A DNA stretch of 49,122 nucleotides from a bacterium (GTDB lineage Bacteria; Patescibacteriota; Patescibacteriia; JACQRZ01). Positions 11,167 through 17,274 of the stretch are shown piece after piece (positions within the stretch are counted from its first letter, which is position 1; the number at the start of each line of letters is the position of its first letter). The translations under genes and the position numbers were made by a program. The notes under the pieces were generated by a model. It saw nothing but the letters and a program-made list of their open reading frames with translations, was not told where the DNA came from and did not search any database. The DNA lies in assembly GCA_023246095.1 (NCBI GenBank), contig JAHFJA010000006.1:1-49122 (forward strand). Direction: 5' to 3'.

Positions 11167-11245
11167 ACATATATTAAATTACGTATTATTTCGTTCAAAA
11201 CGAAGGCGACATTACAGAGGTACTCGATTGGTGTGTAATAATGAT

Positions 11246-11943
11246 ATGGAAGCTAACCAACAAAATCATACTGGTGAAATTTGTTTTTTGTATCAGAGGG
11301 ATTTTTTGAGCGCAAGTGAGATTGCCGAGAAATTATCTTTGTCAATTGATGCGGTGTATTATTGTTTGAGAAAAAATAAGATACCACGACGGACAACAAC
11401 AGAACAGAATATAATGAGATTCGAAAAGACACCATCTACCTTCCTATTAATGAGCATCTAAGCGATATTGATAGAGGGTTGTTAATTGCAGGTATTATTA
11501 TGTATTGGTGTGAGGGATCCAAGAGAGGAGATGGAAAGACGGTTGACTTCGCAAACAGCGACCCGACTCTAATTATATTGTTTCTTAAGTTTTTACGATC
11601 ATTGCTCCATGTACAAGAGAAGAAACTACGATGCTATCTGTATTGTTTTGCAAATCAAGATACTGACAACCTTATTGATTATTGGTCAAGCTTAATTGAA
11701 ATCAGGAAAGATCAATTTACCAAGCCGTATGTTCGAGGTGTCTATAATCCAAGTAAAGAGGGAAGAATGCCCTATGGTTTACTACATATAAGATATGCTG
11801 ACAAGAAACTCTTGTCTTTTATCAAAAATTACATTAATATACTCCCATGTGAGTTAATAAGAAATATGGGCGGTTACCGAAGTGGTCAACCGGGGCAGAC
11901 TGTCAGTAAAGGCAGCTTTATTGAGCAATCAATATCGAATTAA
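11246..11943 (+). pseudogene. Frameshifted HTH + LAGLIDADG-like endonuclease gene overlapping tRNA-Tyr
   Basis: 11246-11461 encodes an HTH (LSASEIAEKLSLSIDAVYYCLRK). A second frame, open from 11380, encodes AGIIMYWCEGSK...VDFANSDPTLIILFLKFLR. One extra base near 11441-11446 would join them (...TPSTF-x-INEHLSDIDRGLLIAG). Could be an assembly error. Confidence 0.6.
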
Positions 11944-12192
11944 TTGGGTGAATTCGGGGAAATCTTCATCTCAATCTTTGGGAAAAGACAATCCCGAGCC
12001 AAGCTAGGAAGGACATAGGTTTCCTAGACGGTGTAGAGACTAGTGAGTGAGTTCCAACAATACTCTCACAAACAGCGCCCAACCCCGCTTCAAATAGCGG
12101 GTGATGATATAGTCCGTGCTCCTAGAAATAGGGGAATTACATGAAATCTGCTGGCATCGCCTTCGAAGGTTCGAATCCTTCACCGCCCACCA
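11868..12192 (+). tRNA. tRNA-Tyr(GTA) split by a group I intron; exons 11868-11903 and 12144-12192
   Basis: Joining the exons gives acceptor stem GGGCGGT/ACCGCCC plus ACCA, anticodon arm GCAGA-CTGT|AAA-TCTGC, a long variable arm and T arm GAAGG-TTCGAAT-CCTTC. Confidence 0.95.
11904..12143 (+). ncRNA. Group I intron (240 nt, no ORF, IA-like)
   Basis: P1 CUGU|C pairs with GGCAG, with U.G at the splice site. P3 UUGGGUG/CGCCCAA, P4 UUCGGG/CCCGAG, P7 GACUA/UAGUC, an extra hairpin between P7 and P3', P8 CCCGCU/AGCGGG, P9 GAAA tetraloop, terminal G at 12143. Confidence 0.93.
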
Positions 12193-12234: not shown

Positions 12235-12306
12235 GCCACTTTAGCTCAGTGGTAGAGCAACACTTTTGTAAAGTGAAGGTCCTGGGTTCGAATCCCAGAA
12301 GTGGCT
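12235..12306 (+). tRNA. tRNA-Thr(TGT)
   Basis: Acceptor stem GCCACTT/AAGTGGC, loop TTTGTAA, T arm CTGGG-TTCGAAT-CCCAG. CCA not encoded. Confidence 0.95.
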
Positions 12307-12603: not shown

Positions 12604-13416
12604 CTAAAGGGGGCTTCTTATGTTTTTTAGTATAGGGTTGGTTACTTTTGTGTATAGTTGGGTTGTTCTGATATTGGCGTGCCCCAGAAGCTCTTGTACG
12701 TATCGTACATCGACACCATTTTCCAAGAGGTGAGTAGCAAAGCTATGGCGCAAAGAATGAAATGTTGCTTCTTTTTGAATATTGGCTTTTTTCAGTGCAT
12801 GTTCAAATACTTTTTGCGCGGTTCTTTCGGTGAGTCGACCGCCACATTCGCTTGAAAATACATACTCGTCGAGCTGTTTATGCGAAATCTGATCAATTAT
12901 GACGGGGATTAATTTCTCAGGAAATACGGTAATGCGATCTTTATTGCCTTTTGCACCTTTAACGTGAATTGTCAGCTCGGAAAGATTGATATCCTTTACC
13001 TTCATCGCTGTTACTTCGCTAACGCGCAAACCTCCGGCGTAGGCAAGCGCAATCATTGTTTTGTGTTTTGTGTTAGGGATGACTCGTAGAATGGATTGAA
13101 TTTCATCGCGAGATAAGAAGATAGGGAGTTTACTGGGTGTCTTGGCAAACCGAATATCAAGCTTACTATTAAACTTGAGCACATTCCGACAGAAAAAATT
13201 TATCGCTTGAAGCTTTTGATTAACGCTTTGCGAGGCCATTCCTTGGTCTATTTTGGATAGTAAGTATTGCTTGATGAAGTCGATATCAACAGAATCGAGG
13301 TTACTTTGTTTGGAAGTTAAATATTCAGCCACACAGGCGGAATAGCTTTTGATTGTTTTGGGACTGTAATTACGCAGTCTTAGCTCATTTTCGAGCTTTG
13401 ATAAATAGACATTCAT
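12604..13416 (-). CDS. Tyrosine recombinase (IntI/XerD-like, SAM-like N-terminus, no IntI insertion), 270 aa
   Basis: LRLRNYSPKTIKSY N-terminus. Catalytic residues intact: GLRVSE, KGNKDR, HSLRHSFATHLLE, LLGH, TTQLY. Ends SPL like IntI proteins. Confidence 0.93.
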   Translation of the reverse strand: MNVYLSKLENELRLRNYSPKTIKSYSACVAEYLTSKQSNLDSVDIDFIKQYLLSKIDQGMASQSVNQKLQAINFFCRNVLKFNSKLDIRFAKTPSKLPIFLSRDEIQSILRVIPNTKHKTMIALAYAGGLRVSEVTAMKVKDINLSELTIHVKGAKGNKDRITVFPEKLIPVIIDQISHKQLDEYVFSSECGGRLTERTAQKVFEHALKKANIQKEATFHSLRHSFATHLLENGVDVRYVQELLGHANIRTTQLYTKVTNPILKNIRSPL

Positions 13417-13450
13417 GTATTTATGTATTACTCTTAACCTAAGAGAAATT

Positions 13451-13520
13451 ATACGAAATATTCGGGTAGTATACAATATCTCGTATGCTATATGTAAACA
13501 CTTCGGATATGGAAGAGTTA
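13451..13520. other. Candidate attI-like primary site
   Basis: ACTTCGGATATGGAAGAGTTA (13500-13520) matches only the right half of the downstream sites. It is preceded by hairpin ATACGAAATATT/AATATCTCGTAT. Confidence 0.45.
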
Positions 13521-13565
13521 TATGAAATGCCAAAAGGAAATAAGGTATTTGGCACATCATCTAAC
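13517..13565. repeat. Empty cassette: GTTA...TAAC inverted arms with a 13-nt loop
   Basis: GTTATATGAAATGCCAAA / TTTGGCACATCATCTAAC, 15 of 18 pairs. Confidence 0.7.
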
Positions 13566-14035
13566 ACGGGATATCCGACTCACAAGCACTCAGAATAAAA
13601 TTATTTTTTCAAATTCATATGAAGAAAGACAATCTAAACAGCAACCCAGAGTTATCGTGGACATTTCTTGATGGAAGTAAGAGAACAGCTGGAATTCTTG
13701 AAACTGTTGTCATTGGTAAAGGAGAATATTTGCCAGGGTGGAAATGGTCAACACACGCTGGTGTAATAACAGGCAAAGAATCAGAACGGCATGTTGGCTA
13801 TGTGCTTTCAGGTGAAATGATAATCAAAAATTCTAATGGTGATGAGATTATGGTTGGTCCTGGAGAAGCCTTCGAGGCAGACCCTGGACATGATGCGTGG
13901 GTTGTTGGAAACGTCCCTTGTGTTGCTTTGGATTTTACAGATTTAGGATTGAAAAAATAATTTTATTCTGAATGCCTGTTCATCCAAATTTGTCTTCGCT
14001 ACACTACGACAAACTTCGGATATCCTGATACGTTA
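13562..14035. repeat. attC-like site 1, carrying the cupin gene inside its loop
   Basis: TAAC-A-CGGGATATCCGA (13562-13578) ... TCGGATATCCTG-ATAC-GTTA (14016-14035). Inner 31-bp inverted repeat at 13582-13612/13949-13979. Confidence 0.75.
13619..13960 (+). CDS. Cupin-domain protein
   Basis: PGWKWSTH, HVGYVLSG and PGHDAWVVG motifs. Confidence 0.88.
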   Translation: MKKDNLNSNPELSWTFLDGSKRTAGILETVVIGKGEYLPGWKWSTHAGVITGKESERHVGYVLSGEMIIKNSNGDEIMVGPGEAFEADPGHDAWVVGNVPCVALDFTDLGLKK

Positions 14036-14204
14036 TACGCAATTCAAAAAATATTTTTCTAACGGAGAATAAGGAATGATAGGCTTTTAAAAGGAAATAA
14101 ATTTGTTTTTCTTTATTTATCGAGGGGGATAATTTGTGTTTCCCTCCACTTCGTTACAGAAAACGAATTATTTATAAATATTAATTATTAAAGATACTAG
14201 TATG
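14035..14204 (+). repeat. Cassette leader copy 1 (homologous to 15785-15957)
   Basis: Shared blocks ATACGCAATT.AAAAAATATTTTTCT, GATAGG, TAAATTTG.TTTT and CTTCG.TACA.AAA.GAAT.ATTT, up to the ATG. Confidence 0.8.
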
Positions 14205-14795
14205 AGAAAAATAACCGTTCTAACAATGATTACATTGGATGGAGTCATGCAAGCACCTGGCGGATCCAAAGAGGATACCGCAGAGGGTTTTAAATATGGC
14301 GGCTGGTCTACGCCGTATATGGATGAAGCGTATGGTAAAGTTGCAGCAGAAGAAATGAAACCAGCAGAATATCTTTTGGGCAGAACAACATTTGAGATTT
14401 TTGCCAGATACTGGCCAGAACATGAAAATGGATGGCCAGGTATCAATAATGGTACGAAATATGTCTTGAGTGGGACTATGAAAAATTCAGATTGGAAAAA
14501 TACCGTTTTTCTCACAAGTCTGGCTGATATCGAAAAGTTAAAAAATTCAGAAGGTCCCGACATACAAGTATGGGGCAGCAGTAAACTCGTTCAACTGTTG
14601 CTTAAGAATGATTTAGTGGACGAACTTCGACTCAAAATTCACCCATTGACAATTGGCGAAGGAAAAAAATTGTTTGGCGATGGCACGATTCCGGCAGCAT
14701 TTGCCTTAATAGAGAGTTCGGTTACACCAAGCGGTGTGATTATTGCCCATTACAAACGAGCTGGAGAAGTCAAGACTGGCACCGTTGGAGATTAA
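14202..14795 (+). CDS. Dihydrofolate reductase-like / RibD C-terminal domain protein
   Basis: TLDGVMQAPG, LLGRTT, GSSKLVQLLL..DLVDE and GEGKKLF motifs. Confidence 0.9.
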   Translation: MRKITVLTMITLDGVMQAPGGSKEDTAEGFKYGGWSTPYMDEAYGKVAAEEMKPAEYLLGRTTFEIFARYWPEHENGWPGINNGTKYVLSGTMKNSDWKNTVFLTSLADIEKLKNSEGPDIQVWGSSKLVQLLLKNDLVDELRLKIHPLTIGEGKKLFGDGTIPAAFALIESSVTPSGVIIAHYKRAGEVKTGTVGD

Positions 14796-14821
14796 AGAGA
14801 AAAGAATTTGACGCAAAAAAA

Positions 14822-14882
14822 TTGAAAAATGAAATTCACCCCTGACCCCTCTTTCATTTTTCAAAACGGAAAAAACAAATTT
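14822..14882 (+). repeat. Cassette trailer copy 1 (homologous to 17150-17210)
   Basis: TTGAAAAATGAAATTCACCCCT.ACC.CTCTTTC.T.TTTCAAA..GGAAAAAA, containing a 13-bp hairpin. Confidence 0.85.
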
Positions 14883-14938
14883 CATACAAATACAAAGAAA
14901 AGTATGGATTACAAAGTCACGGAAAAGTATACTACATA

Positions 14939-15026
14939 TAACAAAGGATATGAGGTTACGAAGCCTTACGACTTCTCCACTCAAATTGCTCCCTATATTC
15001 GCAACTTCTCATATCCTTAAACGTTA
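14939..15026. repeat. attC-like site 2 (88 bp)
   Basis: TAAC-A-AAGGATATGAG-GTTACGAA ... TTCGCAAC-TT-CTCATATCCTT-AAAC-GTTA. Confidence 0.8.
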
Positions 15027-15103
15027 TCGGAAATAGCAAAAATCTTTCCTTATAGTTTAATATTTTGGATTTTTTTTATTTTGAATGCAAAAATTTTAAA
15101 AAT

Positions 15104-15715
15104 ATGGGCAACGAAATAGTAAGCGCGTTCGTACTGGGTCTAATAGGCGGTGTGATTCCCGGCCCAGTTTTGGCGGCCACATTCACGGAAATTTTACAGT
15201 CTGGCATGTTAAAAAGCATGCGGATAATTCTATGGGCAATGTTGACCGAAACCGTTGTTGCCCTAATAAGTTTATTGGCACTATCATCGATGAATTTTTC
15301 TGAGAGCTTTTTCCAGGGTCTTTCGGTAGTCGGGGCCGCCATCCTAATTTGGATTTCGACTTCGATTTGGAAAGTCCACAAAATCGACACCGAAGAAAAA
15401 GTCCATTTCAGTCTGGGTAAAATTTCGGCGATGATTCTGGCTAATGGTGTGCTGTGGACTTTCTGGATCACCGTGTGTGTGCCGAAAGCGATTATGTTGA
15501 ATAATAAGGCGGCTTTCGGCAATTACTTGTTCTTGCTACTCGTCGAAATCGGATGGCTCATTTCCACTGTTCTGGTTGCAGTGATATTTTCAAGATTCAG
15601 AAAAATTCTTTCCAACCCAAAAGTCGTGCCAATTATTTTTAAAATTTTTGCTCTTGTATTCGTGTATTTCGCTGTCGATATGGTTTATAGAAGTATCAGG
15701 TTTTTCCTGACCTAA
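15104..15715 (+). CDS. LysE/RhtB-family exporter
   Basis: GLIGGVIPGP motif and multiple TM helices. Enclosed by ~60-bp inverted arms 15023-15083/15716-15777. Confidence 0.8.
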   Translation: MGNEIVSAFVLGLIGGVIPGPVLAATFTEILQSGMLKSMRIILWAMLTETVVALISLLALSSMNFSESFFQGLSVVGAAILIWISTSIWKVHKIDTEEKVHFSLGKISAMILANGVLWTFWITVCVPKAIMLNNKAAFGNYLFLLLVEIGWLISTVLVAVIFSRFRKILSNPKVVPIIFKIFALVFVYFAVDMVYRSIRFFLT

Positions 15716-15784
15716 CAAGATAAAAAAATTCCAAAATCAATAGTAAGGAAGAAAGATTTTTTGCTACATCAGATAACACGCTAT

Positions 15785-15957
15785 ATACGCAATTTAAAAA
15801 ATATTTTTCTTAAGGTAAAATGAAGATAGGGTTTCAAAATATGGATAAATTTGATTTTTTCTTTTATTGTAAATGGGAATAATATTGTATTTTCTTCTGC
15901 TTCGCTACAAAAATGAATCATTTTATGAACTTTTAATTGTTAAGGGATATTATTATG
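15785..15957 (+). repeat. Cassette leader copy 2, fused to a collapsed site at 15774-15790
   Basis: TAAC-A-CGCTAT runs directly into ATACGCAATT. The hairpin body and GTT are missing. Confidence 0.75.
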
Positions 15958-16857: not shown

Positions 16858-17145
16858 ATGAGCCATATGAATGAAAAGGAAATTGCAACCGGCTTTGTTC
16901 ACAAAGTACCTGCTGATTTAAAGGAAATCTTAACTTCTAATCCTGATGTGATCGAAAGATGGAACAAGTTAACTCCTGTTGCACGCAACGAGTGGATATG
17001 TTGGGTTACGATTGTCAAAAAACCAGAAACAAGAAAAGAGCATCTTGTTCGTTTGCAAGAAGATATTCTTATAGGGAAAAAGAGGCCATGTTGTTGGCCT
17101 GGTTGTCCTCATCGCAGAGAAAGTGCGAAAAAATGGTTTAAATAA
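16858..17145 (+). CDS. YdeI/OmpD-associated domain protein
   Basis: VPADL, WNKLTPVARNEWICWV..KKPETR and RPCCWPGCPHR motifs. Confidence 0.85.
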   Translation: MSHMNEKEIATGFVHKVPADLKEILTSNPDVIERWNKLTPVARNEWICWVTIVKKPETRKEHLVRLQEDILIGKKRPCCWPGCPHRRESAKKWFK

Positions 17146-17149
17146 GAAT

Positions 17150-17274
17150 TTGAAAAATGAAATTCACCCCTAACCTCTCTTTCGTGTTTCAAATAGGAAA
17201 AAATCAAATATATTATTAACGAGGAAAGCCTATCTGATAAACGAAATAGAAAATATTTTGATGAAATCACGTAT
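17150..17274 (+). repeat. Cassette trailer copy 2, truncated inside the expected TAAC core
   Basis: Homologous to 14822-14882 and complementary to leader 2 in several blocks. Ends AATCACGTAT followed by CATG. Confidence 0.75.

Follow-up and report, generated by a model that had tools for sequence, protein, structure and literature searches.

A 113-residue cupin gene in the 49,122-nt stretch of patescibacterial DNA analyzed here (hereafter the window), which is the entire contig C39 of a 985-kb genome assembly (40 contigs, 94.8% complete), lies between the two cognate halves of a single attC-like site, designated site 1, and is enclosed there by an inverted repeat that is the lengthened stem of the site's own inner hairpin. 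The cupin gene is probably the first cassette of a small integron-like array, in which the gene occupies the loop of inner hairpin 1, the 31-bp stem of this hairpin acts as a clamp and the whole unit moves between G|TT boundaries (the bar marks the cassette boundary). In the following, L### denotes fetched loci, G### genomes of the sample of the same class and X# metagenome runs.

Anatomy of site 1

The features of the cupin cassette and its surroundings are as follows.

12604-13416, minus strand: tyrosine recombinase gene, 270 residues from MNVYL, divergent from the cassette array
13500-13528, plus strand: attI-like core, ACTTCGGATATGGAAGA|GTTATATGAAAT, with the cassette boundary at G 13517
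13517-14032, plus strand: cupin cassette, the putative mobile unit, from G|TT to G|TT
13517-13565, plus strand: spacer from R' to R'', with a hairpin of its own (18-nt arms, 83% complementary) and no gene
13555-13576, plus strand: left half of site 1, consisting of CATCATC-TAAC (R''), A and L'' CGGGATATCC (13567-13576)
13582-13612, plus strand: left clamp arm, lengthened stem of inner hairpin 1, ending 6 nt before the cupin ATG
13619-13960, plus strand: cupin gene, 113 residues
13949-13979, plus strand: right clamp arm, starting with TTG AAA AAA TAA, the last three cupin codons and the stop codon
13980-14013, plus strand: conserved CAAATTTG motif and short inner hairpin 2, with the stem TTTGTC (13989-13994) and GACAAA (14008-14013)
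14012-14043, plus strand: right half of site 1, consisting of AACTTC, L' GGATATCCTG (14018-14027), ATAC, GTTA (14032-14035) and TACGCAAT

Site 1 spans 13555-14043, with TAAC (13562-13565) and GTTA (14032-14035) as its outermost ends and an interior of 435 nt with the gene inside. Its left half fits the left-half consensus of the site family described below, tACATCnnnTAACA plus a decamer, and its right half fits the right-half pattern of the same family. GGATATCCGA (13569-13578) and TCGGATATCC (14016-14025) are complementary at 10 of 10 positions, while the L'/L'' decamers as defined for the family are complementary at 9/10 positions in the window and at 10/10 in L012, the locus that carries the same cassette in another genome. 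When the whole 49-kb window was scanned for TAAC...GTTA pairs with inner complementarity, only site 1 and site 2 (14939-15026) were returned. An initial annotation, made from the sequence of the window before the present work, had already placed the cupin open reading frame (ORF) between the TAAC and GTTA halves of site 1, and the two are seen here to be cognate halves of one attC-like site.

The inverted repeat that flanks the cupin gene, also reported in that annotation, was recovered by a repeat search: the 31-nt arms at 13582-13612 and 13949-13979 are complementary at 29 of 31 positions (94%) and are separated by 336 nt, the left arm stops 6 nt short of the ATG, and the last codons and the stop codon are part of the right arm, just as described. 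In the anatomy of the site, this 31-bp repeat corresponds to the stem of inner hairpin 1, which is lengthened. The cupin gene has its place between L'' and L', where the short sites of the family hold small hairpins only, and the interval from the previous R' to its own R'', which is the gene position in ordinary cassettes, contains only 41 nt of hairpin in the cupin cassette. That both types of interval can carry genes, as the initial annotation had suggested, is borne out by the RibD_C-family gene downstream, which lies between sites, and by the cupin, which lies within one.

The single-stranded DNA of 13555-14045 is predicted to fold at -61.5 kcal/mol, compared with -49.0 ± 4.4 kcal/mol for 100 shuffled sequences, none of which folded as well (z -2.86), and the minimum-energy fold pairs the clamp arms, the outer halves and the small hairpin 2. 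The fold predicted for 13497-13582 has a z of -4.39. Among 30 loci of cupin homologues and the window, the flanking repeat is found only in the window and in L011/L012 (z ~12), whereas the other 28 loci have a z of at most 2.2. L012 retains the left clamp arm, where a change at 13591 (C>A) is compensated by one at 13970 (G>T).

The cupin ORF matches Cupin_2 with an E value of 1.3e-5 and 25.2 bits, just under the cut-off of 27.2, and has 627 homologues, many of them with PF07883; its closest protein relatives (P0002-P0012) are 70-82% identical. No relative above 69% identity was found in a metagenome scan with the cupin, and none of 158 cupin loci (L013-L090 and L141-L220) has a right half of the family, the only returns being three loose pattern matches.

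A family of attC-like sites

The right halves of site 1 and site 2 and the core at 13500-13528 are alike (AACTTCnnATAT...GTTATnnGnAAT). A search pattern built from these three, AACTTC-N14-16-GTTAKNNGNAAT, matched in 79 of 401 genomes of the class, with 139 matches in total as compared with 10 in the reversed control (table summed by hand), and the matches often occur as two to six same-strand copies that are 0.6-3 kb apart. The left halves were then sought upstream as the reverse complement of the variable decamer of each right half with AAC in front. The sites so identified have a common order of parts, which runs from (t)ACATCnnnTAAC, A, the variable decamer L'' and inner hairpin 1 (usually GGTnnn...nnnACC) through the CAAATTTG motif and inner hairpin 2 to AACTTC, L', 4-5 unpaired bases and GTTAnnnGAAAT (GTTAKnnGAAAT). 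R'' and L'' are separated by 1 nt (A) and L' and R' by 3-5 nt (mostly 4), and a G faces TTC at the inner junction. The CAAATTTG motif is found in nearly all of the 53 distinct short sites listed.

In a census of the 94 unique right halves of L091-L140, the window and L012, 49 have a cognate left half and an interior of at most 210 nt, and nine have an interior of 375-761 nt. The 58 partnered sites contain 37 distinct L'' decamers, and non-cognate decamer pairs average 5.4/10 matches.

For analysis of covariation, 22 of the 53 short sites (91-112 nt) were picked by hand, aligned with MAFFT, without fitting of the alignment to structure, and folded with RNAalifold. The R''/R' helix, the L''/L' helix and hairpin 1 were all predicted, with 26 pairs in total, of which 17 show compensatory changes; hairpin 1 has double changes in 7/7 pairs. 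Paired cells amount to 94.5%, compared with 72.0% in column shuffles (0/500 as high) and 22-45% when the partners were slid by 1-3 columns. These sites were pre-selected for L''/L' pairing, which makes the result for the second helix partly circular; the selection did not involve hairpin 1 or the R helix.

The right half also shows dyad symmetry, AACTTCnnATA ... TATnnGAAAT around ~9-11 variable bases (e.g., L100 1501-1597 on the minus strand and 14012-14043 of the window), and these arms recur, around shorter middles of about 8 and 9 bases, respectively, in the left half when read backwards and in the attI-like core. The arms presumably resemble those of the lox site of phage P1. With their AAC...GTT ends and inner boxes that are conserved in structure and not in sequence, the family sites are structured and attC-like cassette ends.

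Gene-sized sites and their stems

The nine long sites of the census carry the same cupin (window and L012), another cupin (L137), higB/higA (L139), hicB/hicA (L106 and L114), small ORFs (L099 and L133) or an unclear insert (L121). L'' and L' are complementary at 9-10 of 10 positions in all nine, so that the halves are not independent in relatives: halves and gene stand together in L012, and the eight gene-sized sites other than site 1 likewise have cognate halves. As read from the sequences, a stem flanks the cargo in every long site. In most of them this closing stem has 15-29 matched bases (8-29 by census scoring), and the median number of matches in the best inner stem is 20 for the long sites, compared with 4-7.5 for three classes of short sites. 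Two types can be distinguished. In type 1, the cargo is in hairpin 1, no more than 5 nt separate the arms from L'', and the C(C)AAATT motif comes immediately after them or within 5 nt, the 5-nt gap before this motif being found in the window, L099 and L121. In type 2, the cargo is in hairpin 2 and the arms are the lengthened stem of that hairpin.

Window and L012, type 1: cupin, 31-nt arms
L099 (same stretch as L140), type 1: 89-residue membrane-like ORF, arms AAATAAAATTATTTTTTAAA, nearly the same as in the window
L121, type 1: unclear insert, 27-nt arms
L133, type 1: 91-residue ORF, 26-nt arms
L137, type 1: a different cupin of 124 residues, 33-nt arms, the ORF ending 18 nt before the arm
L139, type 1: higB/higA with their own promoter-like stretch, 18-nt perfect arms
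L106, type 2: hicB/hicA, arms TTTGACTTATTTTTCC and GGAAAAATAAGTCAAA
L114, type 2: hicB/hicA, arms paired at 13/15
L092, type 2: 142-residue ORF, two L'' mismatches, outside the nine

The hicBA sites of L106 and L114 are homologous only from CAAATTTGAC to GTCAAACTTC; in left half, hairpin 1 and L', the two sites show no relationship, and each pairs its L'' with an L' of its own. Conversely, AT-rich arms of similar sequence enclose three different genes in the window, L099 and L133, and the decamers also differ among these three. Judged by these sequences, cargo and scaffold are separable.

The initial annotation had further proposed that an arm complementary to the gene's own 3' end records how genes are captured, or that insertion into a hairpin supplied the stop codon, and neither proposal was supported by comparison. 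Near-identical arms surround a different gene in L099, and those of L137 and L139 do not reach into the coding sequences; the arms are thus part of the site, as its hairpin-1 stem from L'' to the CAAATTTG motif, and not a copy of the gene end. The core of the cupin family ends with LDFxxL, and then come 0-6 variable residues, rich in K in the nearest aligned relatives (GKKK, GKEK and EKK). The L013 cupin, 77% identical to that of the window and preceded by a similar T-rich leader, has neither arms (z 1.3) nor a site, yet its end, GGA AAG GAA AAA TAA, is of the same length as GGA TTG AAA AAA TAA of the window. The stop codon stands where the family puts it, and therefore was not supplied by the hairpin. 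The last two or three cupin codons, which fall in the variable tail of the family, may have been reshaped to fit the arm.

An empty version of site 1 was also sought and none was found: among the right-half pattern matches in the 401 genomes, no site combines the decamer of site 1 with a short interior. A look-alike at 15767-15800 in the window was rejected as an empty copy, as it is a collapsed generic site in which a generic consensus left half is joined to an R' arm and the common leader.

The loop of L121 (2313-2770 of G176:C9) contains no convincing protein ORF and shows a T-arm-like and a CCA-like stretch ~70 nt beyond a tRNA-like match. A tRNA in this loop was not established, with no call by ARAGORN and only 24.7 bits on the opposite strand against an Rfam cut-off of 29. 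A search of the class for the core of the AT-rich arms with one mismatch returned 284/401 genomes with the reversed control nearly as frequent, and was discarded as noise.

Movement of the cupin cassette

The cupin cassette is also found in G030:C27, represented by L012, at ~90% nucleotide identity. G030 belongs to another family of the same class and its cupin protein is 94% identical in amino acid sequence, while 0 of 15 genomes of the same family as the window have the gene. DNA homology between the window and L012 extends over 13517-14177 (84% over 667 nt) and begins exactly at the G of GTTA at 13517: identity rises from 39% to the left of this point to 82-100% within the parts of the cassette and falls to 52% in the leader that follows. 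All 24 positions of the left half (13555-13578) are identical, as are 90% of those of the coding sequence. The cupin is under purifying selection, as judged from the codon differences between the window and L012, of which 24 are synonymous and seven non-synonymous. In the G030/L012 array, the cupin cassette is second, behind a 118-residue gene with an ordinary short site. In X6, a metagenome of another study, two contigs start to match the window at 14033, after 38 and 55 unrelated bases, respectively. The cupin cassette, the one cassette for which unit movement was traced, thus appears to move as a unit with the G|TT boundaries 13517/13518 and 14032/14033. The word shares of runs X2-X11 are small and uninformative on habitat.

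The recombinase and the attI-like core

The recombinase encoded next to site 1 matches Pfam Phage_integrase with an E value of 4.8e-44. Among NCBIfam models, it scores 216 bits with XerA_Arch (cut-off 220) and 202.5 bits, in two stretches, with integrase_gron (TIGR02249; cut-off 265), and among structures of the Protein Data Bank it aligns with XerA (5hxy) in one stretch and with IntI4 (2a3v) in two. In the IntI4 alignment, 15 recombinase residues (180-194) span 58 residues of IntI4 (184-241), from which it follows that the recombinase is without the IntI-specific insertion, the domain around patch III. The enzymes at the array heads of L012 and L140 show the same absence. The array-head enzymes score higher with the integron-integrase model (202-216 bits) than with XerC/XerD (172-188 bits), and the only other tyrosine recombinase of the genome is XerC/XerD-like (245 bits).

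Homologues with 38-56% identity are encoded divergently at the array heads of L012, L123, L124, L140 and G319:C1, and the combination of a divergent recombinase gene with an attI-like site next to an array, a feature of integrons, is accordingly found in these five and in the window. The core, TTCGnATA-n5-7-GTTAnnnGAmAT, adjoins the recombinase gene in the window, L012 (seen in L010), L140, L124 and L123. In nine of the ten genomes that were probed, no homologue is encoded beside the array; it is on another contig or far away, except that G054 has only weak matches and G090 none. The arrays in the probed genomes are often at contig ends.

The protein family of the recombinase is very large, with 7365 proteins at E <= 1e-20 among 8000 candidates scored, and its members are of ~270 residues; those that are named are annotated as XerD or tyrosine recombinase of Patescibacteria. 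The 119 relatives listed for the recombinase show 70-79% identity, which is unusually conserved for an accessory integrase; presumably, the family either spreads horizontally or has a second, housekeeping role.

Proposed mechanism

Because the palindrome covaries and a variable stretch separates the conserved arms of the right half, we infer that recombination proceeds on a folded single strand, as in integrons, with one exchange of strands that replication resolves, and that it is probably catalyzed by the adjacent recombinase. Based on the anatomy described above, we propose that the array is headed by an IntI/Xer-like recombinase without the IntI insertion, that its cassettes end in attC-like sites and that the cupin sits in the loop of an inner hairpin 1 whose stem would have grown to 31 bp. 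In single-stranded or extruded DNA, the clamp stem would zip first and bring the distant halves together; the duplex to which the recombinase binds would then form despite the 336-nt loop, and strand exchange at G|TT of the right half would move the whole cassette. According to the accessible texts on canonical integrons, recombination drops by up to four logs with a long terminal structure if the site has to fold in replicative conditions, but not upon single-stranded delivery (PMC8946536), and deletion of the attC terminal structure hardly matters (PMC2727003). Since a long terminal structure is costly in replicative folding, a device that shortens the effective loop would make sense, and since both the deletion and single-stranded delivery are tolerated, the terminal structure should be tolerant of extra DNA as long as the halves can meet.

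Several points weigh against this proposal. The accessible texts of two studies describe the IntI-specific insertion, which the recombinase is without, as essential for integron function (PMC8138268; PMC9668308). The extra unpaired bases are on the L'-R' arm, whereas the extrahelical bases of canonical attC sites lie on the R''-L'' arm (PMC2727003) and, with an unpaired central spacer, set strand choice. By the rule used, 36 of the 94 right halves, six of them with no upstream DNA, are without a cognate left half. The link between stem length and loop size comes from related sequences, for which no null was made, and the arms of the window and L012 differ by one compensatory pair, two pair-making changes, two pair-breaking changes and a 1-nt bulge, with no net gain in pairing. 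The right half alone could act as a double-stranded core, in which case the left half and the clamp would be irrelevant to the chemistry. No circle, empty junction or inversion was seen in the contigs, which cannot show rare forms.

It is plausible, though short of probable, that these sites belong to an unrecognized and widespread integron-like system of Patescibacteria that is run by IntI-like recombinases without the IntI insertion and in which the folded site would provide a second cargo slot: genes would be captured at hairpin tips, the stem would be kept or lengthened as a clamp and modules of cargo plus stem would move between scaffolds, as hicBA in two sites and similar arms around three genes would suggest.

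Alternative explanations

The main alternative to a clamp is an inversion switch (inverton), in which the 31-bp repeats would be the crossover sites of an inversion run by the recombinase that flips the cupin relative to an outside promoter. This alternative is prompted by the position of an inverted repeat around a small segment directly beside a tyrosine recombinase gene, and arms so nearly identical would keep the ORF intact upon inversion. However, the arms are unlike both the attI-like core and the right-half core at the homology break, and their sequences vary between cassettes, always at the base of the site's inner hairpin. The cassette of G030/L012 is second in its array and not beside the recombinase, and other gene-sized sites are in arrays without a recombinase in the fetched stretch. 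As promoter-like TTGAC..TATAAT stretches are found by eye inside the arms of L139 and L106, inversion would not switch off their cargo, and the cupin segment has the same orientation in the window, L012 and the X6 contigs, although contigs would not reveal a minority form. An inversion switch is hence disfavored and very unlikely. The same promoter-like stretches bear on the idea that the stem enclosing the mRNA from 5' to 3' controls its stability, processing or translation and that its position in a site is incidental. A transcript with both arms would form a 31-bp duplex, given that only 6 nt lie between the left arm and the ATG and that the stop codon falls within the right arm, and no Shine-Dalgarno sequence is visible. 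The distance between arm and ORF varies among the long sites, however, the transcripts of the two-gene modules in L139 and L106 would lack the left arm because their promoter-like stretches are inside the arms, and the fixed register of the arms with L'' and the CAAATTTG motif points to a DNA site. As a sole explanation, an RNA device is highly improbable; a role of the stem at the RNA level and one as a clamp may nonetheless coexist.

A gene flanked by terminal inverted repeats could also have been inserted into an ordinary site as a parasite and have disabled it, leaving the matching halves as a relic. The arms do resemble terminal inverted repeats, and the presence of hicBA with its arms in two otherwise unrelated scaffolds speaks for a module with its own history. 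No target-site duplication is found, however (the flanks in the window are GACTC before and TCATCC after the repeat, and the other long sites are likewise without one), and no transposase is encoded inside the arms, the search not having extended to a transposase in trans. The arms begin at or next to the hairpin base and reuse conserved motifs of the site. Moreover, the gene-bearing cassette has the same G|TT boundaries in genomes of two families and thus still moved as a cassette, its left half has remained identical at 24/24 positions while the coding sequence is at 90%, and L'' and L' still match at 9-10/10 in all nine long sites. We regard a parasitic insertion as unlikely. That the TAAC and GTTA halves come from two separate sites around an accidental repeat is hardly conceivable. 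The half motifs are generic across the family, with a generic left half also at 15767, but the decamers match at 9/10 in the window and at 10/10 in L012 as compared with the non-cognate average of 5.4/10, and by our own estimate a cognate decamer with AAC context within 3 kb is expected ~0.004 times per site. In addition, the repeat has a z of ~12 against shuffles, the layout recurs nine times with different decamers and the halves travel together in L012.

Comparison with known systems

The system with the clamp proposed here shares with integrons the imperfect palindrome of attC with AAC...GTT ends and inner boxes conserved by structure, the same-strand arrays of single-gene cassettes with toxin-antitoxin, cupin and small unknown genes as cargo, the divergent tyrosine recombinase gene beside an attI-like site and the placement of the cassette boundary at the right-end G|TT. 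This likeness was judged by the described features of attC sites. The terminal structure of canonical attC sites ranges from 3 nt to some tens of nt, with the gene outside, and even in large sites such as VCR it is, in the accessible text, a branched structure of 65 nt (PMC2727003), whereas the long terminal structures described here hold an entire gene or two (375-761 nt). Most family sites (49) do not differ from canonical ones in this way. Further differences are the recombinase without the IntI insertion, the extra unpaired bases on the opposite arm and the two conserved inner hairpins with the CAAATTTG motif.

Modules bounded by short Xer-type sites are also found in the pdif/Xer systems and in IMEX, where both intervals may carry genes. 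Their 28-bp double-stranded dif-like cores alternate in orientation and are not known to have a long palindrome or covarying boxes, in contrast to the ~65-210-nt structured palindromes described here, which are all in one orientation. Foreign DNA with an ORF inside attC is known from the IS1111-attC group and from group IIC-attC introns, which bring along a transposase or reverse transcriptase gene and disrupt the attC site; here, the cargo consists of ordinary cassette-type genes without a mobility gene and the stem continues the site's hairpin. Similarly, in the accessible text on synthetic attC sites that were embedded in arbitrary sequence (Nivina et al., 2020; PMC7439510), the idea is that structure defines a site of the attC type and that foreign sequence is tolerated, but those are sites engineered within coding sequence, whereas here a natural gene is within the terminal loop. 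The accessible text of Smyshlyaev et al. (2021; PMC8138268) describes a "Cand" subgroup of Xer-related simple recombinases of candidate phyla and an "integron-like" subgroup, and mentions no cassettes. The "Cand" enzymes are likewise short, simple recombinases of ~270 residues from candidate phyla. They are grouped there as Xer-related, whereas the enzymes described here are at the heads of cassette arrays and score higher as integron integrases than as XerC/XerD. In the literature searched, which did not cover subscription journals or supplements, neither attC-type arrays in Patescibacteria or the candidate phyla radiation (CPR) nor a gene inside attC were found; the terms "Patescibacteria" and "candidate phyla" are absent from the accessible text on IntegronFinder 2, and "CPR" and "Patescibacteria" from that of the archaeal integron paper.

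These sites touch on the question of cassette birth, i.e., how a gene joins an attC site, and on why IntI needs an extra domain. One site family provides a natural series from short sites through mid-sized hairpins to whole-gene sites, and its recombinase resembles IntI at both ends yet is without the insertion. If the second cargo slot exists, insertion at hairpin tips would be a natural route for joining a gene to a recombination site, the unsolved step of cassette genesis, and recombination of the Xer and integron types would have a living intermediate in this system. Through cassette arrays that annotation shows only as "XerD", genes would be exchanged unnoticed in these lineages of ultra-small, host-dependent bacteria. 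Established assays, by suicide conjugation and in replicative conditions, would allow the clamp hypothesis to be tested directly.

Other features of the window

The array of the window consists of the attI-like core, the cupin cassette, a cassette with the leader element, the RibD_C-family gene and site 2, and the LysE gene with a collapsed site. The remaining features are listed below.

12235-12306: tRNA-Thr, followed by a small rpmG-like ORF before the recombinase gene
14033-14201, plus strand: leader element, opening the next cassette
14202-14795, plus strand: RibD_C-family gene, 3' of the cupin gene (13619-13960)
14930-15034, plus strand: site 2, of the same family, an ordinary short site at the end of the RibD_C cassette
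15065-15715, plus strand: LysE gene
15767-15795, plus strand: collapsed site 3' of LysE, in which the generic left half CATCAGATAACA plus CGCTATAT abuts the R' arm TATACGCAAT
3' of LysE, plus strand: 3-dmu-9_3-mt/glyoxalase-type, OmdA, nucleotidyltransferase, DUF2164 and NUDIX genes

What the initial annotation called site 2 is most likely the site at 14930-15034. In the collapsed site at 15767-15795, the inner hairpins and L' are missing, and the LysE cassette is fused to downstream DNA.

The leader element has a second copy in the window (15784-15943, 76% identical) and is also found 3' of R' in L131, L121, L116, L135 and L012. It is conserved over ~150-170 nt between the R' crossover and differing genes (RibD_C, 3-dmu-9_3-mt and, in L012, a large methylase-like ORF) and includes a CTTCGnTAC..GAAAACGA stretch and a GATAAT/GAATAAT box that is conserved. 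It matches no Rfam family at the gathering threshold and possibly serves cassettes as a portable promoter or leader. The summed contig depth in metagenome run X6 is very high over part of the element (14003-14113).

A scan for promoters and terminators over 13380-15100 was uninformative, with five promoter-like sites against 6.2 expected and no terminators. A 60-nt repeat occurs, with 87% identity, at 14816-14875 after RibD_C and at 17144-17203 after OmdA. It was without a call in the terminator scan, yet it is terminator-like in appearance, each copy having a 13-bp stem (TTGAAAAATGAAA and TTTCATTTTTCAA in the first copy) that encloses a C-rich loop. No host gene (rRNA or tRNA) was recognized around a group I intron at 11893-12135, in the region 11228-12135, which lies just 5' of tRNA-Thr, scores 68 bits in Rfam (cut-off 50) and overlaps the end of a 154-residue ORF (11479-11943, without a Pfam match).

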